This document shows, one piece after another, positions 54,482 through 62,852 of a stretch of 64,000 nucleotides of DNA (the stretch's first letter is position 1; every line of letters begins with the position of its first letter). This DNA comes from Pirellulales bacterium. Its GTDB lineage: Bacteria > Planctomycetota > Planctomycetia > Pirellulales > UBA1268. The notes below the pieces were generated by a model. The model saw nothing but the letters and a program-made list of their open reading frames with translations, was not told where the DNA came from and searched no databases. The position numbers were made by a program, and so were the translations under genes. Location: contig CBDFMH010000001.1 in assembly GCA_965249545.1 (NCBI GenBank), forward strand, positions 45-64,044. The letters are read 5' to 3'.

Positions 54482-54838
54482 TCAAGACAGAAAGACAATT
54501 GATCCTAGTACACACGCAATAAGTGACAGTGCCAGAAGAATAAGTAAAAGAAGTTTTGAATCAGATTGTTTTTTAGTGGGTTTAATTGTTTTTATGACGA
54601 TGTTCGGTTGGGCTGGCAGTGTTTGATTGTCTGTCTCAATTGAAAAGATTGCACCGACTGCCTGCTCTTGAAGTGATCGCGGGAGAGGTGGCATGGCAAA
54701 ATTTTCTGACGCACTCTTTGGCACAGGTGGGATGGCCTGATCTGCAGTAGGGGGGCGTGAATCTTGCATGCTCTTGGTTGATGAAGGTGCTTGGTAGTTG
54801 TTAGGAAAGAATTTAGTGCAAAAGAATTCAGAGTCCAC
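54482..54838 (-). CDS. Hypothetical Pro-rich protein with C-terminal membrane anchor
   Basis: Disordered N-terminal part and a single C-terminal hydrophobic helix; 18 bp after the methyltransferase stop. Start uncertain. Confidence 0.45.
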   Translation of the reverse strand: MDSEFFCTKFFPNNYQAPSSTKSMQDSRPPTADQAIPPVPKSASENFAMPPLPRSLQEQAVGAIFSIETDNQTLPAQPNIVIKTIKPTKKQSDSKLLLLILLALSLIACVLGSIVFLS

Positions 54839-54856
54839 GTTGCTTTTTCGATGGAA

Positions 54857-55630
54857 CTATTCGACGCGGCGCCAGGCTGTGAGTTCAGCTATCGTGTGTT
54901 GGTGTTTGCGGCCAGTTTCACGAATGACGAATGGAATGTTCTCACGGGACCCAAGTGTGAAGTGTGGATGCAATGCTCTTGATAATCCAGTGAATGTATC
55001 AATAGGGATTCCGGAATTATCGACGTAGCCGCCTAACCAATAACTCGGAGGGGTGTAATCTTCCAGCCAAGTGTAGGGTGAAGTAATGACTAGCCATCCA
55101 CCAACACGAATGCGTTGCGTTATTGAATTGAGAAAGAGCTGGGGCTGATAGAGACGATCAATTAGGTTTCCCGCGAAAACAAGATCGTAGTTATGCATTT
55201 CATCAGCCAGATTGCATGCATCGCCGGTTTGGAATGTGACTCGGTTGGCAATGTCACTATCCAGCAGACTCTCAAGCGATATTTGACAATCATTCGACAA
55301 TCGGCCCTCAGTTGGGATGCCGTACTGAATAATGCCGCTTTGCTGCAATCTCTTTGCTGCTTCGATGAAACCAGACGAGTAATCAAGGGCGTCAACATGC
55401 TGAAAATGCTTTGCCAGTTCAAATGAAGACCTCCCCACTGCACAGCCAATATCAAGGCAGCGATTACGGTGTTCAAGTTTCACAGAATTCATTAAAAAAT
55501 CGATGCATGCAGCAGGGAAATTTGGGATTCCAAGTACGGGTGGGCCGTAATGAAAACCTAAGTACTGGGACACAAGTCCGGAGGTTTCGTAAAGTGCAGA
55601 GCCAGGTGTTTCTGGAGCAGTTTCTTTCAT
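54857..55630 (-). CDS. Stand-alone SAM-dependent methyltransferase of the OvoA C-terminal (5-thiohistidine N-methyltransferase) type
   Basis: YET..LVSQY..FHYG, NFP, LDIGCAVGRSSFELA, GDACNL, NLIDRL..P, SPYTWLE.YTP...WLGG and PFVIRET.RK.Q match OvoA methyltransferase-domain motifs as recalled. Confidence 0.8.
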   Translation of the reverse strand: MKETAPETPGSALYETSGLVSQYLGFHYGPPVLGIPNFPAACIDFLMNSVKLEHRNRCLDIGCAVGRSSFELAKHFQHVDALDYSSGFIEAAKRLQQSGIIQYGIPTEGRLSNDCQISLESLLDSDIANRVTFQTGDACNLADEMHNYDLVFAGNLIDRLYQPQLFLNSITQRIRVGGWLVITSPYTWLEDYTPPSYWLGGYVDNSGIPIDTFTGLSRALHPHFTLGSRENIPFVIRETGRKHQHTIAELTAWRRVE

Positions 55631-55654
55631 TTTTTCTTTTCAGTTCGTTGATAT

Positions 55655-56689
55655 TTAGTTCTTGGAAATACGTGGGGTTGCGATAAGGCCATCAATGAGA
55701 CTTTGGGGTAAAGGTGACGTCGCCGCCAGTAGCGAGCCAACAACACTACCACGATGACACGAGTCACCACCACATTGTGCATTTGAACAGATTCCATTTG
55801 CGGGCTTGCCGGCATGTCTGTATGCAAGAAAAAGTGCGGCAGGAAATGCATCAGGAATGTAGCAAGCTGATGAGAGCATCCCGCCGACAACCACTCGATC
55901 TGGATAATCTTCCCAACGGGCGATCTTTGCTTTCGAAACCCATTGAGAAGCCTCGTCAAGAATGACCTCTCGTAAGTCTGCTCCAAGGCTTACGCTGGCT
56001 AGAATTCGAACAAGAACATCTGCTGCAGTAAGAACGTCGTTGTCTTTGTGGGTAAGAGAGACATGATTCTGCACTATTTCACGAATGTCAGGATGTCGCG
56101 GACCAATCGCGGCGATCAGTGCTGGTACGGCGACAAGGCCACCAATGTGAATGTCACGGACTCCACAATTGATCGCCTTTCGACCAGAGGCATAATTTGT
56201 GAAAAAGTGTCTGTGGTACTCTTCAACATAGGTGTCATTGTGTTTCTGAGGAGTAAGCATGAAATTGACATAATGATCGAGCCAGCGAGTGGAATCGTAA
56301 TGCCCCGAACGTTGAATCAGCTCAAAAAGTTCAATCGCCAGAAGGGAGTTGACGGTGTTTTCACCGGCTGTCAGAAATTGGTGGTAGTGAACGCCACGTT
56401 TTCCCCAGTACTGCGACTGCTCGCGTAGGATATCACCATTTGCATTGAGTGGCTTATATTCGGATCGCCAGAGAATGCTGTCCGGATGCGTTTTTTTCGG
56501 AGATTGATAGGAGTCAAGTATCCCAAAGTCTCTCTCAATTGCAGATTGGTTGTAGTACCAATGAACGGGCATCGCGATACTGTCGGCTACCAAGGCACCA
56601 AGTAAAATCTGCTTGCCAAAAGAAACGGTTGGAAGGGATTCAATGTCCACAAGGTGTTTTTTTTCTTCATTCGATTGCTGAGTGTTCAT
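55655..56689 (-). CDS. ADP-ribosylglycohydrolase-fold protein, crystallin J1/selenoprotein J-like
   Basis: GALVADSIAMPVHWYY, AGENT, LTH, ACYIPDAFPAAL, GGDSCHRGSVVGSLL; ATGA overlap with the upstream ATPase. Confidence 0.8.
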   Translation of the reverse strand: MNTQQSNEEKKHLVDIESLPTVSFGKQILLGALVADSIAMPVHWYYNQSAIERDFGILDSYQSPKKTHPDSILWRSEYKPLNANGDILREQSQYWGKRGVHYHQFLTAGENTVNSLLAIELFELIQRSGHYDSTRWLDHYVNFMLTPQKHNDTYVEEYHRHFFTNYASGRKAINCGVRDIHIGGLVAVPALIAAIGPRHPDIREIVQNHVSLTHKDNDVLTAADVLVRILASVSLGADLREVILDEASQWVSKAKIARWEDYPDRVVVGGMLSSACYIPDAFPAALFLAYRHAGKPANGICSNAQCGGDSCHRGSVVGSLLAATSPLPQSLIDGLIATPRISKN

Positions 56690-57414
56690 CGTAATACTTG
56701 CTCGAAAAAAGATGCGACTCGAGAGTTTTCGGAGTTTTTGAATACGGTTTCAGCAGGGCCGTGTGACAAGACTGTACCGTCGCCTATAAAGGCAATTTCG
56801 TCAGCCACTCGACGAGCAAAGTTCATCGCGTGAGTTACAAGGATGAAATCAGTTCCAGACTCCTTAAGACCCTCGATCATATCAAGTACTTCAGCAGTCA
56901 TCTCAGGGTCGAGGGCGGAAGTCGGCTCGTCAAGGAAGAGCCGCTTTGGTCTAACAACCATCGCACGAAGTATTGCTATCCTTTGGTTTTGGCCACCAGA
57001 AAGCTCTGCTGGCCGTTTGTCAGCATGCTCATGAAGCTGGAATCGTCTCAAGGGCTCTTCTACTCTCGCTATGGCTTCATCACGACTTAATCCGTGGACG
57101 GACACGAGAGGGAGAATTAAATTCTCACGAGCAGATAGGTGAGGGAAGAGGTTGTAGGATTGGAAAACTGTACCAACAGTGCGCCGATAGAGGCGAAGAC
57201 TGGCTTCGTCTCGTTGCAGGATAGTTTCATCGAATGCCACTGTCCCGCTGGTTGGTATGTCGAGGCCTGCGAGGATTCGAAGGAGCGTAGATTTACCACC
57301 ACCCGACGGGCCGACAAGGACAAGTGAGTTCACCATCTCGGTCTCGATTGATAGTTTGTCGAGAACTCGCGTGGTACCAAACGTCTGAGTGAGATCTTTT
57401 ACAATGAGCCGCAT
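56686..57414 (-). CDS. Polar amino acid ABC transporter ATP-binding protein (GlnQ-like)
   Basis: GPSGGGKST, VFQSYNLFPHL, LSGGQNQR, DEPTSALDPE, VTHAMNFAR. Confidence 0.92.
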   Translation of the reverse strand: MRLIVKDLTQTFGTTRVLDKLSIETEMVNSLVLVGPSGGGKSTLLRILAGLDIPTSGTVAFDETILQRDEASLRLYRRTVGTVFQSYNLFPHLSARENLILPLVSVHGLSRDEAIARVEEPLRRFQLHEHADKRPAELSGGQNQRIAILRAMVVRPKRLFLDEPTSALDPEMTAEVLDMIEGLKESGTDFILVTHAMNFARRVADEIAFIGDGTVLSHGPAETVFKNSENSRVASFFEQVLR

Positions 57415-57434
57415 GGTGTTGCTTGGGGTGCTGG

Positions 57435-58169
57435 TTATCGTTCGTAACTAAATGATGCTTCGAGCCACCTGGAAGTAGCCGATAGTGGTAAGGTGAGCAT
57501 TAGATAGCCAATCGCAAGAGGTACGTAACTCTCAAGTGTTGAGTACGTAAAAGAGTTCACTTCACGAGCATTAAGTGTGAACTCGGAGATAGCAATAACA
57601 GAGAGGAGTGAAGAATCTTTGATAAGAGACACGAGTTGACCTGCTATAGCTGGGAGGACAAGGCGTACGGCCTGAGGTAAAATAACAAGTCGAAAGGACT
57701 GCCACTGTGTCAGCCCAATCGCACGAGCTGAGTCCCGCTGTGTCTTAGGTATGGCATTGAGTCCACCTCGGAAAATCTCAGCCATGTACGCCCCGCTAAA
57801 AGCAGCAAGCACCAAGGTGCCTACCACGAAACGATTTTCGAGACCAACGGCATTCGCTATGACATAAAAACCGAGAAGTAACTGAACGAGAAGTGGTGTT
57901 CCGCGAATGATTTCAACATAGATTCTTCCAGTTGCCTCGATAAGAGGATTTCGAGCACCAAGGAATAGCGCGACGATAAGCCCAATGGCAACGCTGAGTA
58001 CTAAGGCTGCAAGACTCAGCCCGAGAGTCACAAGCCAACCGGAAATAAATTTCTGTCGATATTCCCAGACGCCAGACCAGTTCCAATCACCAGGCACCTG
58101 AAAACAGGCAAGAACGAGCAGGCTGGTGACAGCCGCTGCAACAATGAGGTGAGCGAAAGATCGAGACAT
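57435..58169 (-). CDS. Polar amino acid ABC transporter permease (HisM/GlnP-like)
   Basis: YVEIIRGTPLLVQ, AYMAEIFRGG..AIP, ILPQA, LIKDSSL. Confidence 0.93.
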   Translation of the reverse strand: MSRSFAHLIVAAAVTSLLVLACFQVPGDWNWSGVWEYRQKFISGWLVTLGLSLAALVLSVAIGLIVALFLGARNPLIEATGRIYVEIIRGTPLLVQLLLGFYVIANAVGLENRFVVGTLVLAAFSGAYMAEIFRGGLNAIPKTQRDSARAIGLTQWQSFRLVILPQAVRLVLPAIAGQLVSLIKDSSLLSVIAISEFTLNAREVNSFTYSTLESYVPLAIGYLMLTLPLSATSRWLEASFSYER

Positions 58170-58346
58170 GTCTATAGCATAGAGCCTTCGGCTGGAAATT
58201 TAGAGTCGTAATTATGTGGTGGGCCTCTCTGCCGTCCCTGTGATGAAATAAAAGGCAGCAAGGAGTCCCTTTTTTCGAACTATTGGAATCCTTGTATTTA
58301 CTTTTGTTACCCAATAGCGGACACAGAACCGACCACGAGCTTGCAC

Positions 58347-59159
58347 TCAGAAATAAAAAGGAATGTTATTGGCTTTAAAATAAGCTTTTTCCTCAGGCAA
58401 AAACTGTTCTCCAAGTCTCTCGAAGCCACCTGTATCTTTAAATTCTTGTAGGAATTTGTTGATTGCCTGAAGGAGTGTGATGTCCTGTTTTCGTAGCCCA
58501 ATGGCCCAGGTTTCCTGCCGGAATGGACTAAGAATGGCTCGTGTTGTCTTTGGATGGCGGCGGTGATGTCGGTAAACGGAGAGTGAATCGTAAATGAAAG
58601 CATCTACTTTCCCTTGCATGACTTCAAGTACAGCGGCCGACTCCATATCTAAGACAAATACGTCTGCTTTTTCGAGTTGTTGGGCCGCATATTTGTGAGC
58701 AGATGTTCCCAATTTGACAGCAATACGAACACCTGGTTTTGTGATGTCGTCAGGTGAAACGATCGGCGAATCTCTTCCAACGAGAAGAGTGAGTCCAGTT
58801 TTCAAGTATGGGTTCGAGAAGGCGATTGCCTTGGCCCGCTCTGGAGTGGATGTCATGGATGAAATAATGCAATCAATCGTACCAGTTCGAAGTGCTGGAA
58901 TCAGGCCGTCGAACGCGATGTTTTCAATGAGAATCGGCCGCCCGAGTGATTCGCCAAGTGATTTGGCTAGTTCTACGCTTATGCCTTCAGGCTGGCCTGC
59001 GGTATCTGTCATTTCAAATGGTGGATACGAAAGCTCCATGCCAACCCGAAGGATAGGAGGGGCCGCTTTTGCTGTGGTCAGTAAAAGTTTTTCGGGCAAT
59101 GCGATGAATGTGAGAAGGATTCCAATCGCGTAATATATAGATAGTCCTTGGATTCGCAT
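58347..59159 (-). CDS. Polar amino acid ABC transporter substrate-binding protein (family 3)
   Basis: LRVGMELSYPPFE, FDGLIPAL.TG.ID.IISSM..T.ER, FS.PY. Start placed at ATG 59159 to give a signal peptide. Confidence 0.9.
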   Translation of the reverse strand: MRIQGLSIYYAIGILLTFIALPEKLLLTTAKAAPPILRVGMELSYPPFEMTDTAGQPEGISVELAKSLGESLGRPILIENIAFDGLIPALRTGTIDCIISSMTSTPERAKAIAFSNPYLKTGLTLLVGRDSPIVSPDDITKPGVRIAVKLGTSAHKYAAQQLEKADVFVLDMESAAVLEVMQGKVDAFIYDSLSVYRHHRRHPKTTRAILSPFRQETWAIGLRKQDITLLQAINKFLQEFKDTGGFERLGEQFLPEEKAYFKANNIPFYF

Positions 59160-59351
59160 GTGGTTGTCCAGGAGGCATTGTTCAATATTTTTTTCAGTAT
59201 ATGAAACCAGAGAGCACTGTAGGAATACACAGGGCGGTTCGGGTGATGATAGCATTTTTAATGCTGTGAATGCTCGATGTTTCAGTCAACTGTACGTTCA
59301 ATGTACGCTTTGTTGTCGGCTCCACAGATTGCTGTGATAGGAAGATTTATT

Positions 59352-59837
59352 ATGACGAAAATATATACAGCTTTGTTCTGTTGCACTCTTCTTTCAGTTA
59401 CTTTTGCAGATAGCCTCGACCAGGATTCAACCACGGTGGAGTTCTTTGAGCGTATTTACAAAATGGATATTCAAGGAGTGAAGCCTTACGAGGAGTATCA
59501 AGATCCGGACTCCTTCTATTCTGAGATTGCAAGAAAAGTAGGCATTCCTCAAGTTGCACACGACGCCGTTGGGAAAAGATTTGGGTGGAAACAGGACGAC
59601 AAGAGATTTTTTTATGCGACCATGATTAAGGGTGGTGGGGCGTCACCAGATTGGGGCGTGATGGTAACAAGAGTTCCCGTGGCTCTTCAAAAAGCTCAGT
59701 CGATAGAAGAAAGAAAAGCAATCCTTCAATTAATGGAAATGAAGTTTGTGGTCATTTCATACGACGGTAATATTTCTTTTCCGGAGGTTGAAACATCAGG
59801 TCGTAAAAAGACCAAGCCCATTCATCCAAATCTTTAA
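59352..59837 (+). CDS. Hypothetical exported protein
   Basis: Signal peptide (MTKIYTALFCCTLLSVTFA); no recognised domain. Confidence 0.55.
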   Translation: MTKIYTALFCCTLLSVTFADSLDQDSTTVEFFERIYKMDIQGVKPYEEYQDPDSFYSEIARKVGIPQVAHDAVGKRFGWKQDDKRFFYATMIKGGGASPDWGVMVTRVPVALQKAQSIEERKAILQLMEMKFVVISYDGNISFPEVETSGRKKTKPIHPNL

Positions 59838-59914: not shown

Positions 59915-60859
59915 TTATCTTCTGGTGGCTTGTGTGAATCCAGCCTCGATTAGATCAGGATAGCCGGGCTGCAAGGCACGTGCGTCATAGCCACGAGATG
60001 ATAGTATACGCGCCGCCTCAAGGCAGCGGCCGCCGGACAGGCAGTGACAGTAGATGATCTTATTACTGGGAAGCCGGTCGTGTAAATTATTCTTGGCAGT
60101 GGTTCGAAGTTCGCTGAGGGGAAGAGACTTCGCAAGAGACAGATGGCCACGTGACCATTCCTTTGGCTCACGAACATCTATGAGAATAGCATTCTGAGTC
60201 ATTATGTCGTGCTTGACCTTGGCAAGCGTGTCCTCCGTGTGGGTTTCGGCAAGGACATGCGTAACTGTTCCAATGATAATCGCCATCAGAAGCCCTATTG
60301 TTTTGCATGTGTTTCCAGAAGACGGTGGCTGATTCCATGGCATTTTTGCAATGACCATCCCCATTCCGCATGTGTCGGTGATGCCGGCAAAAACAAGACC
60401 TGCTCCAATAAAACCGGCAAGACATAAGCCGGCAAGTCGGATCTCGTAGATTCCGCTGAATGCTGCTAAGAGAACACCAGCGAAGACGAGTGATCCTGCT
60501 GAAATTCGGACCTGTCTTTCCAGAGATATTGCTTTTCGACCTCGAACAACAGGAAGGCCCGCAGTTTCACAGGCGACGGTTCCTCCTTCAATATTCACGA
60601 CTTTGTTAAAACCAGCAGTAGACATGGCATCACAGGCTTTTTTACTACGACCACCGGACTGGCAAATGAAGTATAGGAATCCGTCTGTGCCAGGATTCAA
60701 AGCCAGCAATGCTGGGTCAAGGCGATCAAGTGGCATGTTCTCTGCGCTCTGAACATGAAGGGTGCCAAATTCTCCAGGTGTGCGAACGTCAATGATCCTG
60801 ATGGACTTGTTATTTTGAAAACGATTTAGAAGTTCTTGAGGGGAGATGTTCTCAGTCAT
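59915..60859 (-). CDS. Two-rhodanese membrane protein (rhodanese + DUF2892/YgaP-like + rhodanese)
   Basis: IDVRTPGEF...H, CQSGGRS; [13 protein letters not shown]...GITDTCGM...MPWN; second IDVREPKEW..GHL, CLSGGRC. Confidence 0.88.
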   Translation of the reverse strand: MTENISPQELLNRFQNNKSIRIIDVRTPGEFGTLHVQSAENMPLDRLDPALLALNPGTDGFLYFICQSGGRSKKACDAMSTAGFNKVVNIEGGTVACETAGLPVVRGRKAISLERQVRISAGSLVFAGVLLAAFSGIYEIRLAGLCLAGFIGAGLVFAGITDTCGMGMVIAKMPWNQPPSSGNTCKTIGLLMAIIIGTVTHVLAETHTEDTLAKVKHDIMTQNAILIDVREPKEWSRGHLSLAKSLPLSELRTTAKNNLHDRLPSNKIIYCHCLSGGRCLEAARILSSRGYDARALQPGYPDLIEAGFTQATRR

Positions 60860-61163: not shown

Positions 61164-62852
61164 ATGAGTTCAGAAAAAAAGATGCACGATCGTCTGTTGA
61201 CAGAGCGATCACAACTTGAAGCCGCTCAAGCTGCTGGTGTTGGGCGTACGCTTGCAACGTATACACGACTATCGGGGCCAGGTTGGTTGCAGTCAGCCAT
61301 AACGCTCGGTGGTGGATCTCTGGCTGGATCGCTTTATTTGGGAGTCATTGGTGGGTATGAGTTTCTCTGGTTACAGCCCCTCATGATGATACTCGGGATC
61401 GTAATGCTTTCTGCGATTGCATACGTGACTCTCTCGACTGGAAAGCGACCGTTTCAGGCGATGAACGAGCATGTAAGTCCGGTACTCGGTTGGGGCTGGC
61501 TTCTGGCTGCAATGATGGCAAACCTGGTCTGGGCAATGCCGCAGTTTTCTCTGGGTACAGCAGCGCTCCAGCAGAATTTATTTCCACAATATCTTGCTGG
61601 TGATTCTGCGAAAAACATTTGCGTGCTTTGTTTGTTTTTACTCGCTGCTGCGGTGGTCTGGTTTTATGACTCACCAGGATGGGGAGTTAAAATCTTTGAG
61701 TTGTCTCTCAAAGCAATGGTCGGGCTTGTGGTGCTTAGTTTTTTTGGTGTTGTAGTGGCAATGTCCTGGAAAGGTGAATTGGATTGGGTAAGTATTGCCA
61801 AGGGTTTTGTGCCAGACTTCAGCCTTCTTTGGCGTCCAGTAACTGGGCTGCATGGCTTCATTGATGACTCAAGTGATCCTGGGTTTTGGACTGCAACAAT
61901 TCTTCGCGCGCAACGTGAACGGATGATAGCCGCTGCCGCTACTGCAGTTGGAATTAATATGACGTTTCTCTTGCCGTACTCAATGCTCCGTAAAGGCTGG
62001 GATCGAGCTTTTAGGGGACTTGCTGCTTTCGATCTATCAACAGGCCTCTTTATCCCGTTTCTTGTCGCAACGAGCTGTGTTGTGATTGCTGCTGCGAGCC
62101 AGTTTCATGCTCGATTTGATGAAAAATTTATCAATCAACCTGCTGCTAATATCACTGGTTCGTACAGGGATAACCTTGAAAAAAGGATTCAATCAGATTC
62201 CCTTTATAAGACTCGTTCCACTCCTCTTAGTCATTCAGAGATGAATGCAAAGATTGATGCTCTGCCGTCAGCGGATCGGAAGCTCGCGTATATGCTTATC
62301 AAGAGAGATTCCCTCGATCTTGCAACTGCTTTAGAAAACCTGTTCGGGAAAGGTGGTCTTACACAAAAAGTTTTTGGTATTGGCGTTCTTGGGATGGCTA
62401 TTTCAACGATAGTGATACTGATGGTTATTAATGGATTCTGTGTGACTGAGATGACAGGGCGTGATGGTGACCGAGTTGTTCAGCGACTTGGAGCACTATT
62501 GCCGGGTATTGTTGGTGGCCTTGGATTTCTTGCCTTGTGGGGAGATGATCAGGCAAGGTTCTGGCTTGCGGTGCCTACAAGTAATTTTGGCATGGTACTT
62601 TTGCCAATTGCATACATCGCATTCTTTTTCATGATGAATAGCCCATCTTTGCTTGGCGATGCCATGCCCAAAGGTAAGTTGCGGATTGTTGTGAACGCCG
62701 TAATGCTCGCGGCGATTATCGCTGCGAGTGTTGGTGCTGGCTTGAGCGTATGGGCGAATGTCGGCTGGATTGGTGTAGCTTTTGCAGTTGGATTTGTTGT
62801 GATTAGCGTGGTCAATGCGAGCTCGAAACAACCGGCATCGAAAAAACAGTAA
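61164..62852 (+). CDS. NRAMP-related (APC superfamily) transporter
   Basis: GPGWLQSAITLGGGS at TM1, about 11-12 TMs, AAASQFH, GMAISTIVILM; canonical DPGN motif absent. Confidence 0.72.
   Translation: MSSEKKMHDRLLTERSQLEAAQAAGVGRTLATYTRLSGPGWLQSAITLGGGSLAGSLYLGVIGGYEFLWLQPLMMILGIVMLSAIAYVTLSTGKRPFQAMNEHVSPVLGWGWLLAAMMANLVWAMPQFSLGTAALQQNLFPQYLAGDSAKNICVLCLFLLAAAVVWFYDSPGWGVKIFELSLKAMVGLVVLSFFGVVVAMSWKGELDWVSIAKGFVPDFSLLWRPVTGLHGFIDDSSDPGFWTATILRAQRERMIAAAATAVGINMTFLLPYSMLRKGWDRAFRGLAAFDLSTGLFIPFLVATSCVVIAAASQFHARFDEKFINQPAANITGSYRDNLEKRIQSDSLYKTRSTPLSHSEMNAKIDALPSADRKLAYMLIKRDSLDLATALENLFGKGGLTQKVFGIGVLGMAISTIVILMVINGFCVTEMTGRDGDRVVQRLGALLPGIVGGLGFLALWGDDQARFWLAVPTSNFGMVLLPIAYIAFFFMMNSPSLLGDAMPKGKLRIVVNAVMLAAIIAASVGAGLSVWANVGWIGVAFAVGFVVISVVNASSKQPASKKQ

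Follow-up and report, generated by a model that had tools for sequence, protein, structure and literature searches.

A free-standing OvoA-type methyltransferase in a planctomycete importer operon and a candidate replacement for its lost sulfoxide-synthase half

The DNA analysed here (the window) is a 64,000-nucleotide stretch from a Pirellulales bacterium (GenBank assembly GCA_965249545.1, contig CBDFMH010000001.1). Its minus strand carries a run of six co-directional open reading frames (ORFs): the periplasmic solute-binding protein (SBP), permease and ATPase of an ATP-binding cassette (ABC) importer, a protein with the ADP-ribosylglycohydrolase (ARH) fold, a methyltransferase (MT) of the kind that forms the C-terminal half of the ovothiol enzyme OvoA, and a small ORF of 118 aa. 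Why does the methylating half of OvoA stand here without its sulfur-inserting half? The original prediction saw the MT as an orphan, and the whole combination as a salvage or tailoring route in which a thio- or seleno-histidine is imported, processed and methylated. Our analysis leads to a different explanation, which we consider the best available and moderately probable: the synthase domain of an ancestral OvoA was deleted in frame, the first step was taken over by an unrelated protein encoded elsewhere in the genome (here called c1), and the MT would still make an ovothiol-type product.

The MT (54857-55630, minus strand, 257 aa) had been assigned to the OvoA C-terminal type, and this assignment holds. 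The protein matches the ovoA_Cterm profile TIGR04345 with 273.6 bits (cut-off 170) over profile positions 1-242 of 242. Among the solved chains of the Protein Data Bank (PDB), it is closest to OvoM (9bxl, 257.7 bits), OvsM (9bxh, 231.8 bits) and full-length OvoA (8khq, 225.2 bits), to whose C-terminal domain it is homologous; the next match reaches 26.5 bits. By family it is predicted to be a full-length, free-standing imidazole N-methyltransferase of the OvoA-C/OvoM type, with a thiohistidine as substrate. The original prediction treated a free-standing MT as unusual, but the existing structures of OvoM and OvsM show that such members of the family are not new; the window MT shares their single-domain build and their length, with OvoM as its best solved match. 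According to the available text of the preprint on OvsM, this enzyme methylates 5-selenohistidine and not histidine, and acts after the synthase OvsA (bioRxiv 10.1101/2024.04.10.588772). In comparison with OvoA (Erwinia tasmaniensis type; OvoA-Th2, PDB 8KHQ, with the lyase OvoB) the window MT lacks the N-terminal DinB/FGE sulfoxide-synthase domain. The gene is nevertheless under purifying selection, and so is the ARH gene upstream of it: Nei-Gojobori estimates of dN/dS from 12 close relatives are 0.07-0.14 (MT) and 0.05-0.11 (ARH), against 0.09-0.16 for the housekeeping gene EPSPS.

The missing half was not found elsewhere in the genome. In profile searches and tblastn of the window's own assembly (92.75% complete, 5 contigs) no synthase of the OvoA, EgtB or SenA type was detected, which bears out the original prediction on this point. 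The best scores were 39 bits for the OvoA N-terminal domain (OvoA-N; TIGR04344, cut-off 400), 53 bits for SenA and 58.5 bits for EgtB, and a relative's OvoA-N gave no tblastn match. Two proteins with weak TIGR04344/EgtB/SenA matches were considered as a hidden synthase and rejected: they carry an FGE-sulfatase domain only, with no DinB domain. At the locus itself there is no OvoA-N joined to the MT, which is a 257-aa ORF lying 24 bp after the ARH gene. Two other genomes in which the MT stands alone, G500 (95% complete) and G537 (94%), gave best synthase scores of 37 and 28 bits, while control genomes with a fused OvoA scored 617 and 703 bits in the same search. A selenium route is unlikely in this organism because no selD was found above cut-off (best match 72 bits, cut-off 125; SenB was not searched for). 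This sets the locus apart from the ovoselenol pathway and speaks against the seleno-histidine option of the original prediction.

Comparison with related loci indicates where the synthase domain went. A scan of species genomes for the MT yielded 191 confirmed relatives, of which the best 80 were retained, and together with tblastn of the window proteins against these loci it produced a set of 90 non-identical MT matches. A complete OvoA of ~740-790 aa, encoded by one ORF and matching both TIGR04344 (~615-627 bits) and TIGR04345 (297-327 bits), comes after the importer and ARH genes in 36 of the 90. Three more have the importer adjoining OvoA with no ARH gene between, and 30 carry OvoA without these neighbours (24 gammaproteobacterial, 6 on cut contigs). 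The MT-only loci with an ARH gene upstream number 18. This count includes L032, where an apparent ARH-MT fusion was dismissed: the long ORF is an artefact of high GC content, with ARH and MT in different frames. The gene order of the window is retained in 15 non-identical related MT-only loci. Importer, ARH-fold protein and MT thus form one operon, as originally predicted, co-located in related planctomycetes.

Among 151 genomes sampled across the window's order, 10/10 from its family and 1/141 others have the MT domain; the ARH subfamily is present in those same 10 and in 0/141 others. Two genera of the family (7 genomes) have fused OvoA, while the window's genus and one other have the MT alone. 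In a quick maximum-likelihood tree of 89 MT domains (L136 and L138 left out; long branches call for caution), all 19 free-standing planctomycete MTs fall on one side of a branch with an SH-aLRT support of 92, and this branch nests inside the planctomycete OvoA clade, with gammaproteobacterial OvoA as outgroup. Because of this nesting, fused OvoA is taken as ancestral and the synthase domain as deleted. The homologies indicate that the window locus descends from an operon of importer, ARH-fold protein and full-length OvoA, from which the sulfoxide-synthase domain was cleanly deleted in one sub-lineage; only 24 bp separate the ARH and MT genes where relatives have an OvoA of 743-790 aa, and the first residues of the window MT align with the inter-domain linker of OvoA. 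What looked like a salvage or tailoring invention is better described as the remnant of that older operon.

Could the synthase simply be missing from the assembly? A normal OvoA-N, or another synthase of the OvoA, EgtB or SenA type, might lie in the unassembled 7% of this genome, and its completeness and division into five contigs leave room for that. The deletion, however, is visible at the locus itself as the short ARH-MT gap. A synthase of this kind is equally missing from G537 and G500, the other MT-only genomes searched (94% and 95% complete), and from the 45/45 Verrucomicrobiota genomes with a free-standing MT described below. An assembly artefact is therefore highly improbable.

The candidate partner came to light outside the planctomycetes. 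Relatives of the ARH-fold protein occur there in 45 genomes, mostly Verrucomicrobiota, in which they are not beside OvoA or the importer. A full-length free-standing MT is present in 42 of these 45 genomes (in 33 above cut-off), and OvoA-N above cut-off in none. Seven of 12 verrucomicrobial loci with a free-standing MT carry, immediately upstream of it and on its strand, a conserved ORF of 380-400 aa (c1). Across 251 evenly sampled Verrucomicrobiota genomes, 49 have the MT, fused to OvoA-N in 4 and free-standing in 45. The protein c1 was found in 46 of the 251, and its 45 strong matches fall in exactly the 45 genomes with a free-standing MT (lists compared by hand); the remaining match is weak (107 bits), in a genome without MT. 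None of the 4 OvoA genomes has c1. Of these 45 genomes, 36 have c1 at most 700 bp upstream of the MT and 5 have it 2-9 kb away on the MT's contig; in the other 4 the two genes are on separate contigs. The flanks of c1-MT pairs are mostly polysaccharide genes.

Two observations from verrucomicrobial loci are recorded here for their own sake. In one genome OvoA is found in two frames (G838:C1:2889965-2892704; 561 aa and 428 aa) together with a second partial N-domain match, which may be a frameshift or a duplication; that genome also has a divergent ARH copy (247 bits). In L138 (the same locus as L191) and L136, c1, the MT, a SUI1-like gene, a TPMT-like methyltransferase gene, the ARH gene and a photolyase gene lie on one strand.

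The same division appears in planctomycetes. A search of 50 loci (L083, L104, L109, L114, L053, L062 and L078 left out) found c1 in 13/16 MT-only and 0/31 OvoA genomes of planctomycetes and in 0/3 gammaproteobacterial OvoA genomes. It is also present in the window's own genome and in the MT-only genomes G500 and G537, and absent from the OvoA genomes G414, G513 and G515, which brings the planctomycete totals to 16/19 MT-only and 0/34 OvoA genomes. The own copy (57-62% identity) is encoded on another contig (G000:C5:2719404-2720531), flanked by genes for a helicase and an AraC-type regulator. It is intact in 8/8 close relatives fetched, with a dN/dS of 0.02-0.055 in the five measurable pairs. 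In one protein of 650 aa (P0244), c1 (55% identical to the own copy) is fused to a TIGR04345 domain (215 bits). This is the two-part plan of OvoA with a different first half.

Co-occurrence, adjacency and this fusion indicate c1 as the partner of the MT, which is therefore probably not an orphan, contrary to the original prediction: c1 is likely to supply its substrate. The proteins c1 and OvoA-N behave as mutually exclusive alternative partners of one MT family, a pattern of displacement by an unrelated enzyme. The ovoselenol pathway (OvsA, SenB, SenC) differs in this respect, since OvsA, the partner of OvsM, is an iron sulfoxide/selenoxide synthase of the EgtB-like branch, whereas c1 has a different fold. 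We found no paper on a partner for such an MT outside the known synthase family. The available text of a study of ovothiols does not mention planctomycetes (PMC8433421).

What kind of protein is c1? Pfam and NCBIfam name no family for it: the own copy gave no match, and a relative reached 16.7 bits on Peptidase_M29 (PF02073, cut-off 27). Searches against PDB sequences gave no usable match either (best profile E 0.75). It is conserved nonetheless, with ~79 cluster representatives at E <=1e-30 among 1.84 billion proteins. Its AlphaFold model (pLDDT 96.1) best matches the non-heme-iron dioxygenase NicX (2,5-dihydroxypyridine dioxygenase, PDB 7cn3; E 1.7e-13, TM 0.55-0.61), followed by the M29 aminopeptidases PepS, AmpT and AmpS (E 1e-9 to 1e-11) and then by the crocagin proteins CgnE and CgnB. 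The fold is common to c1, NicX and PepS/AmpT (TM ~0.5 for the latter), while sequence identity to either group is only 12-14%. Five residues of c1 are near-invariant (E235, E297, H322, H348 and D350); they resemble the metal ligands of the NicX/M29 fold and presumably play that part. To our knowledge no NicX/M29 member has a genomic partner like the thiohistidine-type MT.

A group of six proteins of 636-670 aa (P0341, P0355, P0357, P0363, P0367 and P0372) resembles c1 in the N-terminal half (~30% identity) and continues with a C-terminal half of ~270 aa; none of the six has an NCBIfam family.

The following course of events, whose every chemical step we infer, is suggested by what was observed directly: the homologies, the deletion, the missing synthase, the selection and the adjacency, exclusivity and fusion of c1 and MT. 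An operon of an aquatic planctomycete family combined a polar amino-acid importer, an atypical ARH-fold protein and OvoA. An in-frame deletion removed the sulfoxide-synthase domain in the window's lineage and left the resident OvoA-C domain as an OvoM-like N-methyltransferase, which shares 57-61% identity with fused relatives but only 36% with verrucomicrobial MTs. The lost first step would have passed to c1 (~390 aa, NicX/M29 fold, with its Glu/Glu/His/His/Asp set), which would provide the thio-imidazole amino acid, most likely through de novo formation of 5-thiohistidine at a metal centre. The MT would methylate this product with S-adenosylmethionine to an ovothiol-type compound. The ARH-fold protein may use or recycle that product, because it follows the MT whichever first enzyme is present. 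The importer would be a family-specific accessory that may supply histidine or cysteine, or retrieve the oxidised product. A broader version of this explanation is more tentative, and we regard it as a serious possibility short of a probable one: c1 would be a new thiohistidine synthase of the NicX/M29 fold, the c1-MT pair the main ovothiol-type route in Verrucomicrobiota and in part of the Planctomycetota, and the ARH-fold protein the first enzyme seen to depend on or recycle its product.

The importer was the basis for assuming uptake. Its SBP (58347-59255, minus strand) belongs to family 3 (SBP_bac_3, 119.5 bits). The original prediction placed the start of the gene at 59159, and an internal ATG there would indeed give a protein of 270 aa, but the ORF runs on to 59255, so that either position may be the start. 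The best NCBIfam models for the SBP (binders of Lys/Arg/Orn, cystine, Arg, Gln and His) all stay far below their cut-offs (for example, 111 against 312 for the cystine SBP and 67 against 459 for HisJ), and its nearest solved chains are Arg, Gln and cationic amino-acid binders. It is retained upstream of the permease in related loci. The permease (57435-58169, minus strand; BPD_transp_1, 70.8 bits) is of the His/Glu/Gln/Arg/opine type (TIGR01726 HEQRo_perm_3TM, 74.4 bits, cut-off 42.2). The ATPase (56686-57414, minus strand; ABC_tran, 111.9 bits) resembles GlnQ, ArtP and TcyN with 196-209 bits, all below the equivalog cut-offs. With SBP, HEQRo-type permease and ATPase in one operon, the importer is of the polar amino-acid ABC type. 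It has the three-part architecture and the families of GlnHPQ, ArtPIQMJ, HisJQMP and TcyJLN, but reaches no equivalog cut-off and stands in an operon with OvoA or the MT. A survey of gene families beside iron sulfoxide/selenoxide synthase genes names OpuB/PhnC/PhnE-type transporters, and neither a family-3 importer nor an ARH-fold protein (PMC13674229). The importer genes are conserved (dN/dS 0.03-0.15 overall, 0.03-0.05 for the permease).

These genes are specific to this planctomycete family and are equally part of its OvoA and its MT-only operons. For this reason the importer is not evidence for salvage, in which thiohistidine would be taken up ready-made or bound in a peptide or conjugate, freed by c1 and/or the ARH-fold protein, and methylated to ovothiol. 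Some observations do favour salvage. The three MT-only genomes searched have no OvoA-, EgtB- or SenA-type synthase, and the operon kept its importer when the domain was lost. The fold relatives of c1 include the aminopeptidases PepS, AmpT and AmpS, and in two related verrucomicrobial loci (L190, L191) an M20 peptidase gene and Opp-type permease genes divergently adjoin c1-MT. The organism comes from sea water according to its habitat labels, and algae make ovothiols (PMC8433421, available text). However, with the importer just as present in the 36 loci with full-length OvoA, it shows no response to the loss of the synthase, and the c1-MT pair occurs without this importer in 45/251 Verrucomicrobiota genomes. 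The exclusivity of c1 and OvoA-N and the OvoA-like c1-MT fusion fit the replacement of a synthase. Imported ovothiol A would need no methyltransferase, and the best fold match of c1 is an oxygenase and not a peptidase. Salvage is thus unlikely, although it is to be taken seriously as a competing explanation. Replacement of the synthase accounts for the "orphan" MT better, because c1 tracks the free-standing MTs, excludes OvoA-N and is fused to the MT, and with c1 as likely substrate supplier uptake is not needed to explain the MT.

The ARH-fold protein (55655-56689, minus strand) was likened to selenoprotein J and crystallin J1 in the original prediction. Its ARH fold is confirmed by the family profile (ADP_ribosyl_GH, PF03747, 125.5 bits, cut-off 26.2) and by Foldseek matches of its AlphaFold model (pLDDT 91.6) to MJ1187, DraG and ARH3 (12-18% identity, Foldseek probability 1.00). 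As a single sequence it found no PDB chain at E <=0.01, and a search of the ESM Atlas returned ARH clusters only. It forms a distinct subfamily, in which the canonical metal-binding residues are replaced: in the profile alignment GGD(S/N)CH stands opposite GGDTDT/GGDADT, and PVHW opposite PVEF (PxE to PVH), so the acidic and threonine ligands of the di-metal site appear to have given way to His and Cys. We take ENTV to be the equivalent of the TDDT motif; this is our own reading, not that of an alignment tool. Invariant among 49 sequences are H43, H68, H101, H103, E156, E157, H159, D179, H181, H214, C276, D309, C311, H312 and R313. Fold and Pfam family are shared with DraG, ARH1, ARH3 and MJ1187, but the window protein is linked genomically to an OvoA-C-type MT and not to ADP-ribosyltransferases. 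We found no paper that pairs ovothiol with an ADP-ribosylglycohydrolase.

The link between ARH and MT runs one way. In the Verrucomicrobiota sample the MT is present in 15/15 genomes with an ARH gene and in 34/236 without; ARH presence implies the MT, whereas the MT does not imply ARH. Such a pattern would suit an enzyme that depends on the MT product or acts on it. The subfamily follows the MT in two phyla, with either OvoA-N or c1 as first enzyme.

Two ARH fusions were considered as clues to function, and neither explains it. P0241 (667 aa) joins a member of the subfamily and a flavin amine oxidase in one protein, and a gene of the same oxidase family lies 3' of the ARH gene in a verrucomicrobial locus (L140:6973-8190). 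P0242 (1162 aa), with the snow alga Sanguina aurantia as source label, has an N-terminal ARH domain 38% identical to the window's.

A more sceptical explanation is that the genes share only an inherited neighbourhood: the importer would be a general Arg, His, Gln or cystine transporter, the ARH-fold protein would have a job of its own, and MT and c1 would make or modify a compound that is not a thiohistidine. Fe-ADH and EPSPS, which are unrelated genes, share the synteny of the operon to the same degree. The ARH gene lies outside the operon in two species of the family (L167, G414:C100; L169, G486:C12), where one copy is 38% identical and the other, at 57%, adjoins a gene for a DUF6288/PDZ protein. 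Verrucomicrobial ARH genes have varied neighbours that give no hint of function (photolyase, DUF3253, Dps, amine oxidase), and the c1-partnered MTs of that phylum score near the family cut-off (147-237 bits). The rapid divergence of the MT after the deletion, with the loss of a motif aspartate described below, can be read in the same way. Yet the genes of the window are co-directional with gaps of 20, -4 and 24 bp, and the window MT exceeds the cut-off of its family by far and is closest to named 5-thiohistidine and 5-selenohistidine N-methyltransferases. The presence of an ARH gene predicts the MT in two phyla (15/15, 42/45 and 10/10 genomes), and the company of the ARH-fold protein with the MT under either first enzyme argues for the same class of product. 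We consider a mere shared neighbourhood improbable.

Several results weigh against the replacement of the synthase by c1 and the continued production of an ovothiol-type compound. The MT itself changed about twice as much as its neighbours after the deletion. Median MT identity falls from 79.1% between fused domains to 57.3% between MT-only and fused sequences, a drop of 21.8 points compared with 5-11 for five other genes. On the side of continued function, 73 of the 90 positions with a conservation of at least 95% across 70 fused domains are unchanged in it. Among the 17 changed is Asp17 of the YETD motif, which is Asp in OvoA, OvoM and OvsM and Ser here; given this exchange, the substrate may have shifted. 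The window MT also has Thr where OvoA and OvoM have Gln. Several of the 17 lie in a beta-hairpin that makes contact with the N-domain in OvoA structure 8KHQ, according to the available text of its description (PMC10696552); this part is thus among the variable ones in the window MT.

Other points concern c1. It lies outside both the window and the operon, and 3 of the 19 MT-only planctomycete genomes (G844, G857 and G858; completeness not given) have none. Most of its structural relatives are aminopeptidases, and judged by the model it could hydrolyse a peptide or conjugate to release a thiohistidine, which would amount to salvage. The co-occurrence counts ignore shared ancestry, and the independent events may be few (at least two phyla plus one fusion). 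The window's family yielded no dedicated OvoB-type lyase, which leaves one step missing under a sulfoxide route. A PLP gene after OvoA in L055 was tried as OvoB and set aside as uninformative, its relatives being only 23-32% identical and present in the own and five family genomes, with the MT fused or not.

The layout of the run is as originally described. Going from SBP to the last ORF, the first three genes are spaced by 177 bp and 20 bp, the ATPase stop and the ARH start overlap by 4 bp (ATGA), and the last two intervals measure 24 bp and 18 bp. The operon is covered by contigs from four RNA libraries, which span the junctions permease/ATPase, ATPase/ARH (X15 record 3, X17 record 17) and ARH/MT (X16 record 11). 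They lend slight support to co-transcription, since the contigs are strandless and RNA libraries can hold DNA; they give no level or single-transcript information, and bins without cover carry no meaning. A scan for promoters and terminators returned 3 promoter-like and 4 terminator-like sites, not above shuffled sequence (6.3 and 4.6). In one related locus, L015, the synonymous divergence (dS) from the window is 0.30 and 0.49 for SBP and permease compared with 1.66-2.73 for ATPase, ARH, MT, Fe-ADH and EPSPS, which points to recombination within the operon or to a chimeric assembly.

The last gene of the run (54482-54838, minus strand) encodes a small Pro-rich protein of 118 aa with a C-terminal transmembrane helix, for which Pfam and NCBIfam profile scans gave no family. 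Its true start may be the internal Met at residue 24. It is 46-92% identical in 8 relatives, which keep its motifs and hydrophobic tail, and a dN/dS of 0.23-0.77 against close relatives marks it as weakly constrained. In OvoA-type operons the gene 3' of OvoA encodes a conserved Pro-rich protein of 460-560 aa with a common N-terminal stretch and no family (for example, L024:7758-9134, L166:5938-7614 and L172:5447-6919); its resemblance to the 118-aa ORF is weak (E ~1e-3) and of low complexity. Upstream of the operon and divergent from it lies an ORF of 186 aa without family (59277-59837, plus strand; 50-91% identity in close relatives). Beyond it are genes for a double-rhodanese protein with a YgaP-like membrane segment (59915-60859, minus strand) and an Nramp-like transporter (61164-62852, plus strand), a pair that is syntenic in close MT-only relatives only.

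In the window's lineage, then, the methylating half of an ovothiol gene was kept and its sulfur-inserting half seemingly replaced, which points to an undescribed route. Genomes that bear the MT and have no known synthase are numerous in two phyla, with 45/49 of the MT-bearing genomes in the Verrucomicrobiota sample and one planctomycete sub-lineage. If c1 makes thiohistidine, genome surveys of the producers of these antioxidants undercount them, and c1 would be a new carbon-sulfur bond-forming enzyme that could be tested directly with two genes. The deletion in the window would then be a natural experiment in which one synthase displaced another. The finding also offers a first point of entry to a conserved subfamily of ARH-fold proteins, in which the active site appears to have been rebuilt with His and Cys.

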